This document shows positions 1-49,935 of a DNA stretch of 51,165 bases, piece by piece. Position numbers and translations under genes: made by a program. The stretch lies in NCBI GenBank assembly GCA_030649135.1, contig JAUSGI010000007.1, forward strand, positions 1-51,165. Direction: 5' to 3'. Position 1 is the first letter of the stretch. Each line of letters starts with the position of its first letter. The notes beneath the pieces are model-generated. The model had not been told where the DNA came from, made no database searches, and saw nothing but the letters and a program-made list of their open reading frames with translations. Source of the DNA: a bacterium (lineage in GTDB: Bacteria > Patescibacteriota > Minisyncoccia > Phycocordibacterales > Zambryskibacteraceae).

Positions 1-1466
<1,466 letters not shown>

Positions 1467-2147: not shown

Positions 2148-2531
2148 CTACTTTTTTGTCAAATTAAAATCCAGACAAACGGAGTTAACGCAATATCTCT
2201 TGCCTGTCCCCGTAGGCCCGTCATCAAATAAGTGCCCCAAATGCGCCCCACACTTTTTACAAACCACTTCCGTTCTTTTCATGCCATGAGATTCATCTTC
2301 ACGGAGCTCAATATTTTCAAGATCAGCGGGCGCATCAAACGATGGCCAACCGGTACTCGAATCAAATTTTGCATCTGATTTAAAAAGCTCTGCTCCACAA
2401 TTTTTGCACACATACATCCCCTTATCCTTCATATGTACATACTTGCCACTAAATGGCGCTTCCGTCTGCTTCTCTCTCATCACCGCGTATTCTTCCGGCG
2501 TGAGTTTATTTGTCCATTCTTCTTCCTTCAT
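2148..2531 (-). CDS. msrB: Peptide methionine sulfoxide reductase MsrB (zinc type)
   Basis: GWPSF motif, two CxxC zinc pairs ([19 protein letters not shown]) and the catalytic region are present. Confidence 0.9.
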
Positions 2532-3093
2532 ATTTTAGCGAAGTTGGCGCCTTTTGGGGCAATTGCTTTAATAATTTCGAAAATTCTTTGTGCACCTTAT
2601 CAAGTTTCGGATTAATCACTATCTGGCAGTACGGGGCATTCTTATTATTGGCGTAGTAGTCGTGGTGATAATTTTCCGCCTCGTAAAATGTTTCGAGTGG
2701 CACAACTTCTGTCACTACCGGTGCTCCCACTTGATTAGAAGCATTGATTTCAGCAATAAATTTTTCCGCCTCCGCTTTCTGCGTTTCCGTGGTGTAAAAA
2801 ATAACCGAGCGGTATTGGGTGCCTATGTCGTTACCTTGTCTGTTGAGAGTCGTGGGGTCGTGACTAGCGAAGAAAATGGTTAGTAGAGTATGGTAAGAGA
2901 TCTTGTTCGGGTCGTATTCGATATAAATGACTTCGGCGTGCCCCGTTTTACCACTTGCGACTTGCAAGTAGGTTGGATGAGCCACAGTACCACCGGCATA
3001 ACCGGGCTTTACAGACGAGACCCCTTCAAGTGCCTTAAACACTGCCTCCGTACACCAGAAACACCCGCCGCCAAATACCGCTTTCTCACTCAT
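2506..3093 (-). CDS. msrA: Peptide methionine sulfoxide reductase MsrA
   Basis: GCFWC active-site motif near the N-terminus. Its 3' end overlaps the msrB start by 26 nt. Confidence 0.9.
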
Positions 3094-3350
3094 CGTTTCT
3101 TTAGAAATGTTTCTAAATCTGACTGCCCTTGTTTAAATTCATTTTCAATGTGGGAAAGTTCCGCTCTCAACTGGTCGGCTTCGACCTTCAATTTGGCCTG
3201 CTCGGATTCGTCTCTTTGTAATTCCGCCTTTTCCCTAGTGACTTTAGGCTCTTCGTTCCTCAACTTACGTTCAAGGTCTTCGAGTCTGTGCCTTTTGTCC
3301 TCCAAATTTCTTTTCAGGTCCTCCAACTGTTGCGCGGTTGTGATGGTCAT
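3090..3350 (-). CDS. Hypothetical coiled-coil protein (86 aa, charged heptads)
   Basis: ORF with ATGA overlap to msrA. Strongly Glu/Lys/Leu/Arg-rich and helical (LEDLKRNLEDKRHRLEDLERKLR). Confidence 0.5.
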   Translation of the reverse strand: MTITTAQQLEDLKRNLEDKRHRLEDLERKLRNEEPKVTREKAELQRDESEQAKLKVEADQLRAELSHIENEFKQGQSDLETFLKKR

Positions 3351-3444
3351 TTTTTATGGGTTATTTAAATAAGTTATCCTCGGCTATTCAAGACACCATC
3401 TTGAATTTGGCTCTTGAATTACTTAGGTTAATTCTAGCACTTTT

Positions 3445-3654
3445 CTACCTATTCTTGATTACTGCCTTTGTTTTGTCCACAACAACCGGATTTTTGATAA
3501 TTTTCTTTATAGACTTCAACGCTTTCTCCACTCCCTGCTTACTTTTATAAGTCTCCCCACTGGTCATGACCTTTTTATTATTCCCGGACTTAAAAGTGAG
3601 AAAAAACTCCCTATTTTTCGCCCTACCTATCTCAATTCTATTTTTACTTGCCAT
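3445..3654 (-). CDS. DUF1508/YegP-like small protein
   Basis: 69 aa with a pattern (FKSGNNKK...SGETYKSKQGVEKALKSIKK) that resembles the UPF0339/YegP repeat. Confidence 0.5.
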   Translation of the reverse strand: MASKNRIEIGRAKNREFFLTFKSGNNKKVMTSGETYKSKQGVEKALKSIKKIIKNPVVVDKTKAVIKNR

Positions 3655-3666
3655 AGTGTTTTTATA

Positions 3667-4146
3667 TTATTTGAAAAAGTTGAGCAGTCTACTAAAGAGT
3701 CCCATTTTCTTCATCGGCTTTGGTTGTTCACTTACTAAATTGTTTATTGGTGAACTCGAACCTGTCTCTATCTTTGGGTCAACAAGAGATTGCGATTTTC
3801 CTACAGGTATCTTTTTCACTTCCTTAATCGGAGCAGATTTGGTAGGTTTAGGTTGAGTAGTTTTTACACTAGGTATAACTTTTTGCTGAACTGGTTGAAT
3901 AATCTTAGGAACAATAACTTCAGGAATTGCTTCGGGGATATACGGGAATTCTATTATTTCTCCACACATTTTCATAGAAGAATAAGAGACGCTACTCTTT
4001 CGCCAGCCGTCGTTACAAATTACGCTCCCATCGCTGTCTGACCCCGCAGCACAACTTACTCCTCCGTGACCAGAACAAGCTCCACTTGCTGAAAATACGA
4101 GCACTGGAAAGAAAATTACCAAACTTAATATCAATATTTTTTTCAT
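3667..4146 (-). CDS. Secreted hypothetical protein (signal peptide, Cys-rich head, Pro/Lys-rich tail)
   Basis: N-terminal MKKILILSLVIFFPVLVFSASGA signal peptide and a 6-Cys segment. No recognisable domain. Confidence 0.5.
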   Translation of the reverse strand: MKKILILSLVIFFPVLVFSASGACSGHGGVSCAAGSDSDGSVICNDGWRKSSVSYSSMKMCGEIIEFPYIPEAIPEVIVPKIIQPVQQKVIPSVKTTQPKPTKSAPIKEVKKIPVGKSQSLVDPKIETGSSSPINNLVSEQPKPMKKMGLFSRLLNFFK

Positions 4147-4183
4147 ATCTTCTATAGGATATCATGGAATGACTAACTAGTGA

Positions 4184-4206
4184 CCGTCTGGTATGAAGTT
4201 GGAACC
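4184..4206. repeat. Direct repeat copy 1 (CCGTCTGGTATGAAGTTGGAACC)
   Basis: Near-identical 22-bp copy at 4933-4954. The two copies bracket CDS 4207-4917. Confidence 0.7.
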
Positions 4207-4917
4207 TTACTGTGAGACATTAGAAGGGGCTTTACCATCCTGTAAATCCTGAGCTCGTATTTGTTCGGCAAGCGACTTTCCTGTTGCCCCTTCAGCTATA
4301 TAAGACATTAACAGTAGTAACGATGTTGTATAGCCAAAAATTAAAGTGTGTATAGACTCGTCAAAGTTTTCTCTAGTACCATCATCCCTGTAGATAGTAC
4401 CATCTATCCTGTACTTACCATTTTTAACATAAACCATTAGATTGGGAGTTTTATGAGTTACTGAATCTCTTAATGATATGATATCCGTAAATAATTTACT
4501 ATTTAAATGAGTTTTGAATTTACTATTGAAACCCTTATATTTCTCCTTTTTAACTTGCTTTAGGAATTTATTGAAACTAAGTTCCTCAACTCCATATTGT
4601 TCTTTTAAAAACACGAGAAGGTAATCATAAACAGAACGAGCCAGAACTAAATATCCCTCAAACAAGGCTGCCAATATTTCATGATTAACATCATGTTCAT
4701 TATTTTTAATATGTTTACCTCCTGCCTTATACAAAATATCGCCTATTAATCCAACTCTAAATAACCGAAAGAAAAGTTGGGTTGATTTTTTGTCATTACG
4801 CTTACTAAGCACCTCTTTTACAAAATAATTTAAAGCTACAGCATGAAAAGCATATGATGATGGTTTATCGAAGTTGTATTTAAAATAGTTCTTTGTTAAA
4901 TCTAAACCAATGTTCAT
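4207..4917 (-). CDS. Hypothetical protein (236 aa), bracketed by 22-bp direct repeats
   Basis: Long ORF with no motif recognised. It is mostly helical and lies in the accessory islet. Confidence 0.55.
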   Translation of the reverse strand: MNIGLDLTKNYFKYNFDKPSSYAFHAVALNYFVKEVLSKRNDKKSTQLFFRLFRVGLIGDILYKAGGKHIKNNEHDVNHEILAALFEGYLVLARSVYDYLLVFLKEQYGVEELSFNKFLKQVKKEKYKGFNSKFKTHLNSKLFTDIISLRDSVTHKTPNLMVYVKNGKYRIDGTIYRDDGTRENFDESIHTLIFGYTTSLLLLMSYIAEGATGKSLAEQIRAQDLQDGKAPSNVSQ

Positions 4918-4932
4918 GACTTTATAATCTAG

Positions 4933-4954
4933 CCGTCTGGTGCGAAGTTGGAAC
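4933..4954. repeat. Direct repeat copy 2 (CCGTCTGGTGCGAAGTTGGAAC)
   Basis: 20 of 22 positions are identical to copy 1. It lies 15 nt upstream of the start codon at 4917. Confidence 0.7.
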
Positions 4955-5157
4955 TAAAATAATGCATAATACAAATGCCACATAAAGCTAGTGCGTGTTT
5001 GTTTAGAATTGACACACCTATCCCTTTCTATTAACTCACTCACCTCACTACACATTCCAACTTGGACTGCATAATGGTAATTTTCAAGTTTAACTATTAC
5101 TAGGGCAAACCAAATAATAATTATGGCTAAAGTAACGATAGTTATATTCTTTTTCAT
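4954..5157 (-). CDS. Small membrane protein (67 aa, N-terminal TM)
   Basis: IVTLAIIIIWFALVIV TM helix. It lies 12 nt downstream of the nucleotidyltransferase gene. Confidence 0.4.
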   Translation of the reverse strand: MKKNITIVTLAIIIIWFALVIVKLENYHYAVQVGMCSEVSELIERDRCVNSKQTRTSFMWHLYYALF

Positions 5158-5169
5158 ATCATTTATTGT

Positions 5170-6348
5170 TTAAAGCTCTACTTCCCACTGTGTAGAATAT
5201 TCTTTTTGAGTCTTTTGTACATTCTCTATTTTATCGCAAATAAATTGTTTTATGCTTTGGGTATTGCTTGTCCCGCCACTTCTATCATATCCCCAAAAAT
5301 ACTCCTTCGTTATACCGTCGTTTTGTGGAGTATAAAATTCTAATTTATATGGCTCGACATCACGTTCCATCCCAGTATAAGTAAGTTTTATTAATTTTTT
5401 GTTTCGACCACCAGAGATGATCATTTCTCTAAATATATTTGAGAATGTTGACGGTCTTATCATGCGGCCTCCCATTCTAGTAACATATGCAGCTATTTCA
5501 TCGAAAAAAGTGGGGACGGATTCAGCAAAGGAATTGTGCGCTGTCTCGAATGTCATCGAACTCTGAAGAGGTACTATTAAACCGCCCCATGATTGGGCGT
5601 AGGTTTCGTAAGCTGGAAAGTTACAAAAATAATCACGCATATGTTCAAATGACCTTGAAAAATCTGTTTTTGACAAAAGCACCCTAATTATTTGGCTTCT
5701 GTTAATTTCTTCGTTTGGAGATAAAAAAATTGAATATACTAAGTCAAAAAAATCTCCCGCCTTCCTTCTGTGTAAAAGGGTAATAAACTTTGTAGCTATA
5801 ATTTCTTCAAGTTTTTGGGACCTTACTTTGGTGTCACTAAATAATTCGTGATCAGAATATGGGTGAATAATAGACCTGTACTGTGGAGGAAGACTTAAGT
5901 TCTCTCCACGAGTTACATCTACCTGTGTTTTGAGGTTGAATTTTCCATCAGAATGTATTGCCTTGAAATACATTCTTGCCTCGAGGGCATCAACCTGCAT
6001 TTTTTCCGGCAAATTTTTATCCTCGACTCTCACCTCATCAACAAAAGGGATGCCAGTCTGTTTTTCGATGGAATGTCCAATATTGTTAAGTCTTTCTTTG
6101 AGAAATTCTTTTTCAACATGACTATATGCAGAGAAGTCTAAATCCCGTGCAAATCTAGTATCAGGATAATATAGCTTACGTAATGCACCACTACCTTTAA
6201 GAGTAAGTTGTGGGGAAAGGCGTGGATCAGAGGAAACCTCCTTTATAATCCAACTTTGAATATAATCTCGCTCTACGTCTGCCGGAGTAAGTTTAAATTC
6301 TATAGCCTTTCTTTTAATTTCTTCTGTGTCAAACATTTTTGATGACAC
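5170..6348 (-). CDS. AbiEii/DUF1814-family nucleotidyltransferase (putative abortive-infection/type IV TA toxin) with ~100-aa C-terminal extension
   Basis: DYIQSWII...LKGSGALRKLYYPDTRFARDLDFS matches the AbiEii GGTAL...R.SxDxDF Pol-beta NTase signature. No AbiEi-like wHTH partner lies upstream. Confidence 0.65.
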   Translation of the reverse strand: MSSKMFDTEEIKRKAIEFKLTPADVERDYIQSWIIKEVSSDPRLSPQLTLKGSGALRKLYYPDTRFARDLDFSAYSHVEKEFLKERLNNIGHSIEKQTGIPFVDEVRVEDKNLPEKMQVDALEARMYFKAIHSDGKFNLKTQVDVTRGENLSLPPQYRSIIHPYSDHELFSDTKVRSQKLEEIIATKFITLLHRRKAGDFFDLVYSIFLSPNEEINRSQIIRVLLSKTDFSRSFEHMRDYFCNFPAYETYAQSWGGLIVPLQSSMTFETAHNSFAESVPTFFDEIAAYVTRMGGRMIRPSTFSNIFREMIISGGRNKKLIKLTYTGMERDVEPYKLEFYTPQNDGITKEYFWGYDRSGGTSNTQSIKQFICDKIENVQKTQKEYSTQWEVEL

Positions 6349-6398
6349 TAACTATGCATCTTATGGAGAAGCAAGTAAATACCCTTTTTAAGCTTAGC

Positions 6399-6863
6399 TT
6401 AACTCATCTGATCTTCTCTAATTTTAGAGGTTTCCGTATTGTTCAATGGGGCTGCGCTGTAGTGAGTGGAGATGGTAACAGTATTTGATGAATTTTGGCT
6501 CGAAGCAGCTGCGGTGGTAGTAATGTTAGTATTTGCGGAAGTTTGATTTGCGGTGGTGGAAGTAGAATTTGCTAATGTCTCTGTAGTTAAACCTGTACCA
6601 CCTACAGTTATGTAATCCTTGATATTTGAAAAAGTAACGTTGCCGATGCCGCTGACATTCTTAATATCTTCAATTTTTTCAAAGGGACCATTCGTATTTC
6701 TGTAATCTATTATTCTTTGAGCATAAGCCGGTCCAATACCGTTTAATGTCTGGAGTTCACTAGAACCCGCTATATTGATATTAACGAGCGCTGCTTGAGC
6801 ATGTAAAGCTACTGGCAGGATTACCAGCAGTATGACAACAAAATATTTTCTATAAATACGCAC
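6399..6863 (-). CDS. comEA: ComEA-like helix-hairpin-helix DNA-binding protein (GTG start)
   Basis: Signal peptide, then INIAGSSELQTLNGIGPAYAQRIIDYR...GPFEKIEDIKNVSGIG tandem HhH, then a Thr/Ser-rich tail. Confidence 0.8.
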   Translation of the reverse strand: MRIYRKYFVVILLVILPVALHAQAALVNINIAGSSELQTLNGIGPAYAQRIIDYRNTNGPFEKIEDIKNVSGIGNVTFSNIKDYITVGGTGLTTETLANSTSTTANQTSANTNITTTAAASSQNSSNTVTISTHYSAAPLNNTETSKIREDQMS

Positions 6864-7003
6864 GGGCGTAGGCGATTATTCCGATACTGAAGGAGATGAG
6901 ACACAAGAACCCGAAAAGAAACTTAAAGAAGGTCCGATCAAAATAACGCATCGCTTGATTATAAATCTCTCTAGCCCAAATATCACCCAAGTTATCCCCA
7001 GCT

Positions 7004-7678
7004 TTACCGAGGGGAGGGCTCGGTAGGTACGTCATGGAAATTTATCCAATCACGAATATCTATTTTGAATTCCGCGATAGTATTAAAATACTTAGGAAAG
7101 ACTTCTGTATTTAGAATTACGCGTTCTTCTCTGTTTCCCGAAAGATAATCCAGGTAACTGGAATAAACATAATTATTAAGAAAAGATTCTGCTTGTGGAA
7201 TATCTAGGTTCTCTTTTTTCCAATTGGTATTAAGTATTTTCAATGGATTTAAATGTATGTAAGCGAATATATATTTCAAATATTCATCGACATCTAGATG
7301 AGAAGATTTGAACTCACTGCTGAAAAGCGCGCCGGTTCTCTCGTATTTCTTATTGAAATAAGTGGAATAGGCAGTCAGAAGCTTGCTCATAAATTTTACA
7401 ATACCACCCTCTGTGATTTCTTTAATTAGCAAATGAAAATGATTTGGCATTAGACAATAGGCTCCAATGGCCACCAGTTTTTGTCCGGTCTTAACATCTT
7501 TTAACGAAAATTTCTTGGTCTCTCTGTACATAACTGGTTTTGTTCCGTTGCAGAGAAGTAATAGACGTACGAATCTTTTTCTATCAGCATCATCCGGAAA
7601 GATGGATCGTTTATCAACGCCACGGCTATATAGGTGATAAAATTCTTCAACTGAAAAAATAATTTTACGTACTGTCAT
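7004..7678 (-). CDS. tnpA: IS200-like / REP-associated tyrosine (Y1 HUH) transposase
   Basis: HUH motif LMPNHFHLL and catalytic Tyr region YIFAYIHLNP. The likely start is MTVRKI at 7678. The track's 7705 start reads through the hairpin. Confidence 0.8.
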   Translation of the reverse strand: MTVRKIIFSVEEFYHLYSRGVDKRSIFPDDADRKRFVRLLLLCNGTKPVMYRETKKFSLKDVKTGQKLVAIGAYCLMPNHFHLLIKEITEGGIVKFMSKLLTAYSTYFNKKYERTGALFSSEFKSSHLDVDEYLKYIFAYIHLNPLKILNTNWKKENLDIPQAESFLNNYVYSSYLDYLSGNREERVILNTEVFPKYFNTIAEFKIDIRDWINFHDVPTEPSPR

Positions 7679-7763
7679 ATTTCCCGAGGGGAGGGCTCGG
7701 TACATATATTGTACCTTTAAAATAGAAAAAAGTTATCCACGCTTACCGAGCCCTCCCCTCGGT
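7005..7763 (-). mobile_element. Minimal IS200/IS605-family (RAYT-like) element 1 with terminal hairpins
   Basis: Hairpin taccgag-gggaggg-ctcggta occurs at 7005-7025 and 7683-7702. An inverted copy lies at 7744-7763. These bracket a single HUH-Y1 transposase gene. Confidence 0.7.
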
Positions 7764-7775
7764 GAACGATTAACA

Positions 7776-14518: not shown

Positions 14519-15529
14519 ATGGTAAAACTAAAAAATATAGAAGATAAGAGTCAGGGTAAAAATATAGATGCTACTCTAGATGCGATCAGGACCAAATTCG
14601 GCGAGGACTCAATCATGAAGCTTGGAGACAAACCTAGAGTAGGCATAGATGCCATCTCCACCGGCTCTATAGGCCTGGATGCCGCGCTCGGCGTCGGCGG
14701 TCTACCACGAGGTAGAATTATAGAAATTTTCGGTCCGGAATCTTCAGGCAAGACCACCCTCTCGCTCCATGTTATAGCCGAGGCACAGAAGACAGGCGGC
14801 ATTTGCGCCTTCATCGATGCCGAACACGCTATGGACCCGGAGTACTCCAAGCGTCTCGGTGTCAAAATCGATGAGCTCTTAATCTCCCAGCCGGATACAG
14901 GCGAACAGGCCCTTGAGATTGTGGACTCCTTAGTGCGCTCCGGCAAAATTGACGTCATCGTCATAGACTCGGTAGCGGCACTTACTCCTAAAGACGAGAT
15001 TGAGGGCGACATGGGAGCATATCACGTTGGCAAACAAGCGCGCTTGATGAGTCAGGCCTTGCGCAAGCTCACCGCCATCGTGGCGAAGTCTAAAACTATC
15101 GTTATCTTCATCAATCAAATCCGCATGCATATAGGCGTGATGTTCGGGAATCCCGAAACTACCCCGGGCGGCAAGGCGCTTAAATTTTATACCTCGGTGC
15201 GCCTAGACATTCGCCGCATTGCCCAGATTAAAAAGGGTGAGGAGGTCATGGGGGGACGCACTCGGGTCAAGGTGGTGAAGAATAAGGTGGCGGCGCCATT
15301 CCGACAGACAGAGTTTGACCTGATGTATAACGAAGGCATTTCGCGAGAGGGCGAGCTCATCGCGCTCGGCGAGAAATTTGGCATTATGAAAAAGTCCGGC
15401 AATTCTTATGAGTATGGGGAGACTAAACTTGGCCGCGGCTACGACGCCACTCGTCAATTCCTACGCGAAAACAAAAAAATTTCAGACCAAATTCTCAAAG
15501 ACATTCATGCTAAACTTAAGGAAACCTAA
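14519..15529 (+). CDS. recA: Recombinase RecA
   Basis: GPESSGKTT Walker A and conserved IDAEHA, L1/L2 loop regions. Confidence 0.95.
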
Positions 15530-16166
15530 ACTCGTCAACCTCGCAGGTCGACAACTTTAGTAGTTCCTTTTCATAAATTTCTGGCTTCACGTCAAATAGT
15601 TCGTAAAATAATTTTTTATTTATAATTTGCTCCATTGCCCCGTCTCCAAAGTAGTCCTTAAAACTAGACCATTTATAAGTTCTTAGAAAATCTAGAGCTT
15701 TTCTATTATTTCGAGTGGACATGTTTTTGCGATCCGAAGGAATAAGATCTAAAGGATTGATATCAATATAGTATGGAATATAAAGATATTGCCTCTCGTC
15801 AGTGATGGGAATTACCTTAGCCCTATTCTGAAAGACATAACCACTTCTCCCTTTGTTCCTTATATTGAAATACTTAGTAAATGCATTACCCAGACGTTTA
15901 GTAAATTCAATAATCCCTCCTTCGACTGCTTCATGAAGCAACAAGTGATAGTGGTTAGGCAGGAGACTCCATTTTAAAATTTCTACTAACTTTTCTCGCT
16001 CTGGTAACTTCGCCGCCTCAAAAATATTTTTAACTGTTCGGACCTTTCCTTTTTTATTGTTAAGTAAGAAAAGATTCTCAACAAACCTCTGGTAATCGCG
16101 ACCGTCATTGAAAATTTTGCGCTTTTCTATCCCCCGATTGCATACATGAGCGATGTCTCCAATCAT
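15516..16166 (-). CDS. tnpA: IS200-like / REP-associated tyrosine (Y1 HUH) transposase, second paralogue
   Basis: [13 protein letters not shown] and Tyr region [12 protein letters not shown]. About 40% identical to the first copy over the core. The ORF tail overlaps the recA stop by 14 nt. Confidence 0.75.
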
Positions 16167-47759: not shown

Positions 47760-48191
47760 TTACCCGGCGTTCAAATTTTTTATATTTGCACTCAGAAAAG
47801 CCTTAATATCTTTAATAATTGGCTCTCTTTTTATGGGTCGGCTACCTGCAATATGTCTAGCAAACCTATAGAGTCTCTCATTACTAGTATGAATCCATTT
47901 GCCATTTTTATAAAGGAAATACAGTAGACTCATCACAGCAATCCTTTTGTTACCATTTTTAAATGGATGATTTTTAATAAGGAGGTAAAATAGCATGGCT
48001 CCCTTGTCTACAATACCTCTATATAGGTCCTTTTTACCAAATCTTGAAAAAGGAGTAGCGAGACAGCTTTCAAGAATGTTTGGAAAACGAGACCCAAACT
48101 CTGGAATAGGCTCACTCCAAGTCATAAACTTCTCTGCAAGATTAAAAGCTGTATATTCTACCTCGGCAATGCCTATAGGTTTAGTTCTCAT
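47760..48191 (-). CDS. doc: Doc/Fic-family toxin (death-on-curing)
   Basis: HPFKNGNKR Fic/Doc active-site motif. Confidence 0.85.
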   Translation of the reverse strand: MRTKPIGIAEVEYTAFNLAEKFMTWSEPIPEFGSRFPNILESCLATPFSRFGKKDLYRGIVDKGAMLFYLLIKNHPFKNGNKRIAVMSLLYFLYKNGKWIHTSNERLYRFARHIAGSRPIKREPIIKDIKAFLSANIKNLNAG

Positions 48192-48442
48192 TCTTTTCCT
48201 AAAGCCTCAAAAGTTTTTCTGTATTCTTTGGTAGCTTTTTCTACCGCCTTTTCAATGTTGCTTTTCTTTTCATTTCCGAGCGACTTGCCTAGAGCTTCTA
48301 ACAAATCCTCATGTGCTACAATATAATTCCTGCCAACTTTTTCTGCTTTTATTTTCCCATTTTTAATACGCTTAAAGACCCCGACACGAGTCATGTGCAT
48401 TATGTTGGCAACCTCAGATGTAGAGTAATATTTTGGGTTCAT
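48188..48442 (-). CDS. Putative antitoxin with N-terminal HTH (excisionase/MerR-like)
   Basis: 4-nt overlap with doc. YSTSEVANIMHMTRVGVFKRIKNGKI is an HTH. Confidence 0.65.
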   Translation of the reverse strand: MNPKYYSTSEVANIMHMTRVGVFKRIKNGKIKAEKVGRNYIVAHEDLLEALGKSLGNEKKSNIEKAVEKATKEYRKTFEALGKE

Positions 48443-48921: not shown

Positions 48922-49935
48922 TTAATTGGAAGATTTGGGCTTGGACGCTTTGTCGATAATCTTCTGTCGCAATTTCCAGCTGTTGCCATGGCTCATAAGA
49001 CCGAGATACGACTGCACCGTTTCTTCCTTTCCGTCCTTTGCCTTTATATTCCTAAACATCCTCTTTTTGGTTGTCGTCCTTAAGACTTGATGATCCGGAA
49101 AATGCACCCAGCCGAGAAAGTCGACACCCGAAGCGACAGTCTGTATGAAAATCTTATCCGGATGCATGGAGAGCTTGAGCTTGTTTCCTAAAAACTCCTG
49201 CATCGCCGGCAGAATGGTTTCAAGGTACGCCTTGTCCGTCGAAAGGACGGCAAAATCGTCAGCGTAACGCAGATAATATTTCGCTTTGAGGCGATGCTTC
49301 ATAAATTGGTCGAATTCGTTCATGTAAATATTTACCAGAAGCTGGGACGTTAGATTGCCGAGCGGGAGTCCGATGCCGACAGCGTTTGAATGAAAACTCC
49401 GAACGATGACAGATAAGAGATGGAGAATATCTTGATCGGGAATATATTTTGCAGATATGTCCAAGAGAATCGCGTGATCGATGTTTGCAAAAAACTTTCT
49501 GATATCGCATTTGAGCACCCATACCGTCCGAACGTTGTTCTCTGAAACAATGCCGATGAATTTTCTGAATCTGCTGAGAGCTCGATGCGTACCTTTTCCG
49601 TCTTGGCAGGAATTCGAGTCGGAGATAAACGTTTTTGCGAAAAATGGCGACAGTTGCCTATGCAATGCGTGATGTAAAAGCCGGTCTCGAACACTTGCTT
49701 TGTGGATGTCGCGCGGCTTAGGATCGGCGATCTTGAAATGCTGATACGCAGAATGGGTGTATGTTTTCGCCACAAGTTCGCGGTGAAGCGAGATAATGTT
49801 CGTCATCAGATTTCGCTCGAATTCTTGCACATCTTTGCGCGACCTTTTTCCGCGCACGAATTCTTTCCACGCTTCGAGGAGATTTTCGAGCGAAATGATA
49901 TGATTATATGTATGTTGAAATTGGATTCTGGACAT
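48922..49935 (-). CDS. Diversity-generating retroelement reverse transcriptase
   Basis: RT motifs 1-7 with YADDFAV. Motif 4 is IGLPLGNLTSQLL (GxxxSQ, DGR-specific, versus QGxxxSP in group II introns). The N-terminus resembles DGR RTs. Confidence 0.9.
   Translation of the reverse strand: MSRIQFQHTYNHIISLENLLEAWKEFVRGKRSRKDVQEFERNLMTNIISLHRELVAKTYTHSAYQHFKIADPKPRDIHKASVRDRLLHHALHRQLSPFFAKTFISDSNSCQDGKGTHRALSRFRKFIGIVSENNVRTVWVLKCDIRKFFANIDHAILLDISAKYIPDQDILHLLSVIVRSFHSNAVGIGLPLGNLTSQLLVNIYMNEFDQFMKHRLKAKYYLRYADDFAVLSTDKAYLETILPAMQEFLGNKLKLSMHPDKIFIQTVASGVDFLGWVHFPDHQVLRTTTKKRMFRNIKAKDGKEETVQSYLGLMSHGNSWKLRQKIIDKASKPKSSN

Follow-up and report, generated by a model that had tools for sequence, protein, structure and literature searches.

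A single protein joining an AbiEii/MenT-family nucleotidyltransferase to a predicted WYL domain in a low-GC segment of a Patescibacteria contig

Known DUF1814 toxins and WYL-domain proteins

The closest described relatives of the gene reported here belong to the AbiE (AbiEi-AbiEii) and MenAT systems, whose toxins are DUF1814/COG2253 nucleotidyltransferases and which, counted as type IV, are now argued to be type VII. The control of these toxins (AbiEii, MenT) is currently explained via their antitoxins, which either induce auto-phosphorylation of the toxin or sequester it. The phospho-acceptors are S78 in MenT3, T39 in MenT1 and T65 in AbiEii (PMC11375011; bioRxiv 10.64898/2026.01.19.700257). 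WYL domains, for their part, are found in the wHTH-WYL-WCX regulators BrxR, CapW, DriD and PafBC; those of DriD, CapW and PafBC bind single-stranded DNA made by DNA damage, and the WYL domain of CapW holds a short single-stranded nucleic acid with its 3' end docked (PMC11662680). In CARF- or WYL-fused effectors (Csm6/Csx1, WYL-Cas3, WYL-Mrr), a ligand sensor and a nucleic-acid-targeting effector share one polypeptide. Finally, a fusion of WYL with an AbiGII-like nucleotidyltransferase (DUF1814) was catalogued by Makarova et al. 2014 (PMC4012209). In the literature searched, we found no published experimental characterisation of this family, here called AbiEii-WYL.

Gene content of the locus

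The window analysed is a contig of 51,165 nucleotides from a member of the Patescibacteria. All the open reading frames named in an earlier note on this DNA are present on the minus strand, at the coordinates given there. The features are as follows.

1-1466, 23S rRNA
3090..3350, minus strand, coiled-coil protein of 86 aa (GC 0.441)
3371..3406, plus strand, 15-mer AAGTTATCCTCGGCT then an 8-bp hairpin, at the low-GC boundary (z -3.3)
3445..3654, minus strand, DUF1508 (YegP-like) protein of 69 aa (Pfam PF07411, 3.9e-7; phrog_1422, 1.1e-6)
3667..4146, minus strand, secreted Cys-rich / Pro-Lys-rich protein of 159 aa (MDO8590053.1, hypothetical)
4184..4205, minus strand, 22-nt direct repeat, downstream copy GTTCCAACTTCATACCAGACGG
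4207..4917, minus strand, 236-aa protein of a small candidate-phyla-radiation (CPR) family, with a possible HEPN_Cthe2314-like domain
4933..4954, minus strand, 22-nt direct repeat, upstream copy GTTCCAACTTCGCACCAGACGG
4954..5157, minus strand, mechanical 67-aa ORF with one predicted TM helix, a doubtful gene
5170..6336, minus strand, AbiEii-WYL gene, 388 aa from the ATG at 6336 (NCBI MDO8590055.1, 'AbiEii/AbiGii toxin family protein')
5173..5451, minus strand, predicted WYL domain (residues 300-392), one helix and a five-stranded SH3-like barrel
5470..6336, minus strand, DUF1814/AbiEii nucleotidyltransferase domain (residues ~5-293 in the 392-aa numbering)
6399..6863, minus strand, ComEA-like helix-hairpin-helix protein (HHH_3, 1e-20; TIGR00426, 5.4e-21; GC 0.389)
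7004..7678, minus strand, Y1 (IS200-like / REP-associated tyrosine transposase-like) gene (MDO8590057.1)
7744..7762, plus strand, REP-like hairpin TACCGAGCCCTCCCCTCGG

The AbiEii-WYL gene lies in the lowest-GC stretch of the contig, beside the Y1 transposase-like gene. This gene matches Pfam Y1_Tnp (1.1e-8) and NCBIfam REP_Tyr_transpos (5.4e-9, under that model's cut-off). Three exact copies of the REP-like hairpin, which folds, were found where 0 are expected, the further ones at 7007-7025 and 7684-7702 (minus), and the 15-mer that marks the low-GC boundary also stands ahead of REP-like hairpins at 6989 and 7730 (0.03 expected). The low-GC segment reaches ~7.75 kb, past the coordinates of the earlier note, and so takes in both the Y1 gene and comEA, the latter confirmed as the immediate upstream neighbour of the AbiEii-WYL gene. 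The scan for promoters and terminators was uninformative (21 sites against 14.6 +/- 4.1 expected), its best promoter-like site being upstream of comEA.

An accessory islet next to the rRNA had been proposed. Its reading frames exist, but msrB and msrA stand between them and the 23S rRNA. The accessory character agrees with the atypical composition of the segment and with the integrative elements that carry homologues; it does not extend to the coiled-coil gene, which belongs to a conserved msrAB block. Indeed, this gene has a host-like GC (0.44) and a 40%-identical homologue upstream of msrA-msrB in the relative L037, and we therefore place it outside the segment. Among the 80 metagenome loci bearing msrA that were compared, only L037 shares more than msrAB; these loci gave no empty site and, beyond the exclusion of the coiled-coil gene, little delimitation of the island by synteny, and no conserved synteny of the islet across relatives was found.

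The further proposal of an anti-phage island found little or no support. Within 3090-7705 the AbiEii gene is the only PADLOC match, no neighbour fitting any model, and the 159-aa secreted protein and the DUF1508 protein have no defence link. The 67-aa reading frame is doubtful as a gene because it is missing from the NCBI annotation of the contig and forms a singleton cluster; it has 0 family matches. Only the 236-aa protein, which has 23 homologues and no Pfam family, gives a HEPN signal, and a sub-threshold one: PF18730 (HEPN_Cthe2314) matches 6 of 20 family members, all below threshold (best 24.9 bits, cut-off 27.1). Its motif R150-x4-H155 has an invariant R150, with His155 replaced in 6/20 members; a HEPN-like domain is possible. 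The repeats noted earlier on either side of the gene are real: they are 22-nt direct repeats, unique in the window and 0 expected by chance; a related repeat occurs in L030/L031 with identical 749-nt spacing. We rejected the idea that this gene travels with AbiEii, its homologues being found in unrelated contexts; the shared contig size of 2944 nt and the shared '667 aa' neighbour size are coincidences. A relationship with the DUF4145-like neighbour in L033 was likewise rejected (hhalign probability 0.15%).

Domain architecture and family of the AbiEii-WYL protein

A complete nucleotidyltransferase of the AbiEii/MenT family (DUF1814) and, at the C-terminus, a WYL domain identified by structure prediction make up one polypeptide. 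The mechanical reading frame starts at GTG 6348 (392 aa), whereas homologues and the NCBI model begin at ATG 6336. The nucleotidyltransferase identity given in the earlier note, whose quoted motifs are found in the translation, is confirmed by Pfam AbiEii (1.4e-18, 68.2 bits against a cut-off of 22.5), by a full-length match to PADLOC PDLC02317 (residues 5-392 against model positions 1-387 of 396, 1.7e-34) and by Foldseek searches with the AF2 model (pLDDT 90.6, pTM 0.74), which retrieved MenT4 (6y56, 9.9e-10), TglT/MenT3 (1.6e-9) and JHP933 (4e-9). The catalytic residues D69, D71, D144, K187, R194, D199 and D202 are all present and invariant across 51 homologues. An antibiotic, KNTase-type enzyme had been considered as an alternative: ANT(2'')-Ia reached only E 0.03-0.07 in Foldseek, no such family was matched in Pfam, and the MenT/AbiEii matches are ~7 orders of magnitude better than those to ANT(2'') antibiotic nucleotidyltransferases.

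The protein thus shares with AbiE and MenAT the catalytic domain, the fold and the motif residues (G-x-x-A...[S]-K-D-x-D; a third Asp; K...R...D..D), as well as a location on mobile elements, and by analogy its chemistry is likely the same, namely nucleotide addition to tRNA 3' ends. It differs from them by the extra C-terminal WYL domain, by having no AbiEi (COG5340) or MenA gene and, in its own clade, by the loss of the phospho-acceptor Ser/Thr. The phospho-acceptor position, two residues before the first catalytic Asp, is occupied by Ala67 (TRF-A-RDLD); Ser is found there in 110/119 family members, and the nine with Ala form the clade of this protein only.

The extra C-terminal domain noticed earlier is real and strongly conserved among homologues. 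By sequence alone it had 0 PDB matches (phmmer, hmmsearch), and Pfam WYL (PF13280) stayed sub-threshold (12.0 bits against a cut-off of 21.8, E 0.21), the best score among relatives being 17.1 bits (P0185) and the PADLOC WYL match on this protein 0.015; structure prediction was therefore needed for its identification. The predicted fold, a five-stranded SH3/Sm-like barrel with a preceding helix, is superposable on solved WYL domains. Unlike the wHTH-WYL-WCX regulators, the protein has neither wHTH nor WCX, since its N-terminus is the nucleotidyltransferase and it ends ~10 residues past the barrel, and its output is an enzyme and not DNA binding. When the basic residues around the WYL strand of CapW (RWHVR, R184) are mapped by eye, the positions here are E349-YFW-G353 and K367; the flanking Arg of the regulators appear unconserved, being Glu and Gly here. 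Because these Arg contact ssDNA in CapW, the ligand of AbiEii-WYL may not be ssDNA. Compared with the CARF- or WYL-fused effectors, it combines a sensor and an effector in the same way, but the effector is a nucleotidyltransferase and not a nuclease, and no signal-generating system is seen nearby.

The earlier suggestion of a self-contained variant fits with a WYL sensor domain; the fusion itself is not new. Both the fusion of PMC4012209 and PDLC02317 have the same two-domain architecture with no architectural difference, the PADLOC model aligning along its length, the present protein being a Patescibacteria member with a Ser-to-Ala change. The family counts about 150-190 sequence clusters, patchily distributed over Patescibacteria, Proteobacteria, Acidobacteria, Planctomycetes, Actinobacteria and plasmids. 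In agreement with the earlier note, no AbiEi/MenA-type antitoxin gene adjoins the gene, none was found in the window (PADLOC) and none stands beside ~30 homologues, so that the partner-less arrangement recurs in several phyla and on plasmids. BLAST clustering of every ORF lying up to 3.5 kb away from 27 homologues revealed no conserved neighbour, and Pfam scans of 44 immediate neighbours gave a heterogeneous set (M23 peptidase, DSP phosphatase, hydrolase, HTH, TPR, DUF2726). Even in the closest clade, the small downstream genes (TM67, L002_139, L116_128) are without similarity. Small serine-recombinase/Rep integrative elements carry the closest relatives as cargo; at L116 the neighbours (DUF2726, NUDIX, Pol-beta NTase) resemble defence cargo. 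A phage origin is unsupported, with 0 tblastn matches in 50,697 phage records, and beyond the family name there is consequently no contextual tie to phages.

Control of the enzyme and significance

The explanation that we favour, with evenly balanced confidence, is a switch for abortive infection or growth arrest made of one protein, AbiEii-WYL, whose WYL domain would gate the nucleotidyltransferase in cis; the small genes around it share the accessory segment as unrelated passengers and do not encode subunits. If it works like MenT1/3/4 and AbiEii, the enzyme would stop translation by adding nucleotides at the 3' acceptor end of tRNA. In place of an antitoxin, the WYL domain would act in cis as a gate keeping the enzyme off, and the gate would open on binding a nucleic-acid or nucleotide signal that arises when phages replicate or DNA is damaged. 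The toxic activity, the substrate and the ligand are each a proposal here. In the Ala67 clade the auto-phosphorylation off-switch would be unusable, which would leave control to the WYL domain or to the expression level. A more specific version is tentative: the WYL barrel would now do the work of the antitoxin and gate the tRNA-modifying nucleotidyltransferase on phage-derived single-stranded nucleic acid or nucleotide, and the Patescibacteria clade would have dropped the ancestral auto-phosphorylation off-switch (Ser to Ala).

Three other explanations were weighed. The WYL domain might be a substrate-recruitment module holding a single-stranded 3' end (tRNA, other RNA or phage ssDNA) for an enzyme that is constitutive on a foreign or specialised substrate and non-toxic to its host, and which would for that reason need no antitoxin. 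Short single strands of nucleic acid are indeed ligands of WYL domains, and CapW docks their 3' end (PMC11662680); single-stranded 3' CCA ends are the MenT substrate (PMC11162799), the family is solo everywhere, and the Ala67 clade tolerates the loss of the phospho-acceptor Ser without a partner. We nevertheless regard this explanation as unlikely: most of the family keeps the Ser by which toxic relatives inactivate themselves, which suggests that the activity needs restraint, and WYL is an allosteric sensor in all characterised cases.

A growth-arrest switch that serves the host or its mobile element under stress or DNA damage (addiction, dormancy), in which ssDNA from damage would trigger translation arrest with no anti-phage role, seems quite unlikely. 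It would agree with the ssDNA generated by DNA damage that the DriD, PafBC and CapW WYL domains sense, with the carriage of the gene by integrative elements, where toxin modules can also aid element maintenance, and with S. agalactiae AbiE, which showed no phage-defence phenotype in E. coli (no protection against 32 coliphages); the family name, the precedents of L. lactis AbiE and SanaTA/RlegTA and the defence-like cargo at L116 indicate phage defence instead. As for an orphaned or trans-controlled toxin, with an antitoxin lost or encoded elsewhere in the genome and an incidental C-terminal domain, the view is limited to one 51-kb contig and AbiEi families are divergent enough to be missed; the recurrence of partner-less loci, the strong conservation of the C-terminal domain and the 0 AbiEi matches in the window make it very unlikely.

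What is new here is only one more family member and the Ser-to-Ala observation. If rules of the PADLOC and DefenseFinder type require both AbiEi and AbiEii, AbiEii-WYL genes would be silently lost from defence censuses, which matters for reduced genomes such as those of CPR bacteria. A widespread branch that carries a WYL sensor and never an antitoxin would reveal another way of controlling such toxins, namely gating in cis by a ligand, and would offer a one-gene system for asking what WYL senses when wired to an enzyme and not to a promoter. If the cis switch with its Ser-to-Ala change is true, AbiEii-WYL would be the first DUF1814 toxin under purely cis control, and would suggest a route by which minimal genomes reduce two-gene toxin-antitoxin modules to single-gene sensors.

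Gene order and limits of the low-GC segment

The contig comes from an uncultured bacterium (NCBI label 'MAG: ... [bacterium]') and the closest protein relatives of the window proteins belong to Patescibacteria/Paceibacterota. All the features listed in the earlier note were found, the peptide motifs quoted there occur in the translation, and the genes are arranged as below; the 67-aa ORF is a singleton missing from the NCBI annotation.

Genes of the 5' part of the contig (coordinates, strand, description)
1-1466 (-), 23S rRNA gene, 5' part
2148-2531 (-), msrB
2506-3093 (-), msrA
3090-3350 (-), 86-aa coiled-coil protein
3445-3654 (-), 69-aa DUF1508 protein
3667-4146 (-), 159-aa secreted Cys-rich protein
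4207-4917 (-), 236-aa unknown protein
4954-5157 (-), 67-aa ORF
5170-6348 (-), AbiEii-like gene
6399-6863 (-), ComEA-like helix-hairpin-helix protein
7004-7705 (-), Y1 (IS200-like/REP-associated) transposase-like gene

GC content is 0.31-0.39 from ~3.35 to ~7.75 kb, compared with 0.45-0.52 on either side, and reaches the contig's lowest values there (0.347 at 4-5 kb and 0.356 at 5-6 kb; mean 0.448, sd 0.044). The AbiEii-like gene encodes a nucleotidyltransferase (NTase) domain followed by a WYL domain, and its closest homologues (58-60% identity) are carried in small integrative elements that combine a large serine recombinase with Rep on Patescibacteria-like contigs (L116, 566-7849, and L002, 3250-8863). 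The L116 element also encodes an XRE-type HTH protein and places AbiEii-WYL alongside DUF2726, NUDIX and Pol-beta NTase proteins; in L002 it accompanies a nucleoside-deoxyribosyltransferase-like 139-aa protein. Both are candidates for elements that carry defence cargo in CPR bacteria.

The coiled-coil gene has a host-like GC content (0.44), overlaps msrA by four bases and has a homologue (40% identity) upstream of msrA-msrB in a relative (L037), where the next gene upstream is without counterpart in the window. It is the only gene behaving as core and homologues of the 236-aa protein lie in unrelated contexts; thus, the set does not show conserved synteny. Together with the low GC and the homologues in integrative elements, this upholds the accessory islet previously proposed, except for the core-like coiled-coil gene and for the limits of 3090-6348: the islet spans roughly 3.37-7.75 kb.

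A 15-mer (AAGTTATCC.C.GCT) with an immediate hairpin occurs at 3371-3406, 6989-7025 and 7730-7766. The motif is found at both ends of the low-GC segment: the first site is its left boundary, and the other two flank the Y1 transposase-like gene, around which a REP-like hairpin (TACCGAGCCCTCCCCTCGG) has three exact copies. Speculatively, the 15-mer/hairpin could mark ends for the Y1 enzyme to move the 3.6-kb segment. A second Y1 transposase-like paralogue (15516-16166, -; 33% identity to the 7004-7705 gene) is without those flanking hairpins.

Other genes of the segment and the defence-island proposal

The suggestion that this assortment forms an anti-phage island finds little backing, AbiEii being the sole PADLOC match among the segment genes, and the DUF1508, secreted and ComEA proteins are not known to act in defence. 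The one interesting neighbour is the 236-aa protein, one of 23 members of a CPR family that Pfam does not cover. Six of 20 members match the HEPN_Cthe2314 profile just below threshold (best 24.9 bits vs 27.1); the window protein has an R-x4-H motif (R150...H155) whose His is replaced in 6/20. The 22-nt direct repeats flanking its gene (4184-4205 and 4933-4954; gene strand GTTCCAACTTC[RY]ACCAGACGG) are real and unique within the window. A homologue with 78% identity, located in an unrelated context (L030; also L031), is bounded by related repeats (141-164 and 890-913 in L030, core AACTTCGTAYCA) with the identical 749-nt spacing, and homology between the window and L030 flanks is limited to the repeats. 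The gene looks like a small site-specific cassette, with no adjoining recombinase. At another locus (L033, 5252-5986), a DUF4145-like protein with a HEPN-type GDTAAH motif precedes a 236-aa homologue, to which it has no detectable profile similarity (hhalign probability 0.15%).

Elsewhere on the contig, a reverse transcriptase gene (48922-49935, -, with 47760-48442, -; PADLOC RT 1.9e-49 and numerous DRT/UG models, YxDD at residue 223) lies near a small HTH-like gene and a 143-aa gene and may represent a retron, DRT or group-II-intron-type element. Beyond 7.8 kb, PADLOC also matched SspH (2e-60), mad8 (two ORFs, 1.5e-37), QatD (5e-23), PDC-S23 (1e-18), PDC-M59B, PDC-S05 and, weakly, HerA. Some of these may be housekeeping proteins that resemble defence genes (TatD, FtsK).

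Domain architecture and family of the AbiEii-WYL protein

The protein matches Pfam AbiEii (PF08843, 1.4e-18, residues 40-208 of the 392-aa ORF) and 23 PADLOC AbiEii models, one of them end-to-end (PDLC02317, residues 5-392 vs model positions 1-387 of 396). In an AlphaFold2 model built from 51 homologues (pLDDT 90.6, pTM 0.74), the N-terminal 290 residues resemble the solved DUF1814 toxins MenT4 (9.9e-10), TglT/MenT3 (1.6e-9) and JHP933 (4e-9), far ahead of ANT(2'')-Ia-like antibiotic nucleotidyltransferases (E 0.03-0.07 only); the AbiEii-type assignment is therefore supported over the antibiotic-NTase alternative. Every sequence in the family alignment retains D69 and D71 (DLD motif), D144 and K187/R194/D199/D202. 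Translation most likely begins at the ATG at 6336 (388 aa), where the homologues and the NCBI model also start.

Comparison of the C-terminal domain with WYL proteins scored as follows.

WYL proteins compared with the C-terminal domain
PafBC, 12.0
BrxR, 11.4
DriD, 11.3
CapW, 10.1
WYL1, 7.6

WYL domains act as allosteric sensors. Those of DriD, CapW and PafBC recognise ssDNA, and c-di-GMP is the ligand in one case. The RWHVR arginines of CapW, which flank the WYL strand and touch ssDNA (PMC11662680), correspond to Glu and Gly in the window protein (mapped by eye), so its ligand may be other than ssDNA. In one sub-branch (L020-L022 of Saccharibacteria, 479-485 aa; also P0160, P0174 and P0181) the protein is extended at the C-terminus by ~90 aa with weak matches to zf-BED-like zinc fingers.

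An identical two-domain layout is shared by the 189 proteins (~385-420 aa) recovered by homology, which span Patescibacteria, Alpha- and Gammaproteobacteria, Acidobacteria, Planctomycetes and others. Searching 1.84 billion representatives with the C-domain only gave 144 clusters; 7/10 checked with Pfam match AbiEii, and several are fragments truncated at the N-terminus. Gene neighbourhoods were compared at 27 genomic loci, five further loci of closest homologues and three annotated plasmids. BLAST clustering of the ORFs within 3.5 kb of 27 homologues found no neighbour family common to different genomes. Immediate neighbours are mixed (M23 peptidase, DSP phosphatase, alpha/beta hydrolase, HTH, TPR and DUF2726 by Pfam), with no AbiEi family among the 44 scanned, and none of the 52 window ORFs matches PADLOC AbiEi models. 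In the plasmid search, short canonical AbiEii matches overlap annotated AbiEi antitoxin genes, whereas full-length WYL-bearing matches do not. The solo status noted earlier therefore holds for the whole family. In one Planctomycetaceae MAG (L012), a dual-specificity phosphatase gene (2140-2607) lies directly upstream of the homologue, a single case that is intriguing because DUF1814 toxins are phospho-regulated.

Proposed control of the toxin-like domain

MenT toxins prevent the aminoacylation of tRNAs by attaching nucleotides to their 3' acceptor ends (PMC7450476, PMC10435456, PMC11162799). To neutralise MenT/AbiEii enzymes, the antitoxins induce them to phosphorylate themselves on a Ser/Thr that lies two positions ahead of the first catalytic Asp (MenT3 S78, MenT1 T39, AbiEii T65; PMC11375011; bioRxiv 10.64898/2026.01.19.700257); the MenT3 S78A mutant retains its toxicity and escapes neutralisation by the antitoxin. 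The Ser is kept in 110/119 family members (TRF-S-KDLD) and is Ala in all nine scorable members of the window's clade (TRF-A-RDLD). Given this Ala and the behaviour of S78A, the phosphorylation off-switch would be closed to the window's clade.

The NTase-WYL fusion is not new: an 'AbiGII-like nucleotidyltransferase (DUF1814)' figures among the enzymatic domains fused to WYL in the list of Makarova et al. 2014 (PMC4012209), and PADLOC has a model for its full length. No experimental study of the fusion turned up in the literature searched. The new detail is the Ser-to-Ala change at the predicted phospho-acceptor. The protein has the toxin fold of AbiE/MenAT and probably the same chemistry, but is not an AbiE/MenAT system because it has neither antitoxin nor phospho-acceptor; nor is it a wHTH-WYL-WCX regulator.

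A cis-gated toxin is the simplest interpretation: the WYL barrel would keep the NTase inactive until a nucleic-acid or nucleotide cue binds WYL and frees it, whereupon translation would halt. Rival explanations give WYL the task of recruiting substrate, or place the protein in DNA damage or addiction and not in phage defence. An antitoxin could also act in trans, the AbiEi result covering the window and the family loci. As a cis-gated toxin, the protein might, rather tentatively, constitute a single-protein, phosphorylation-independent Abi switch.
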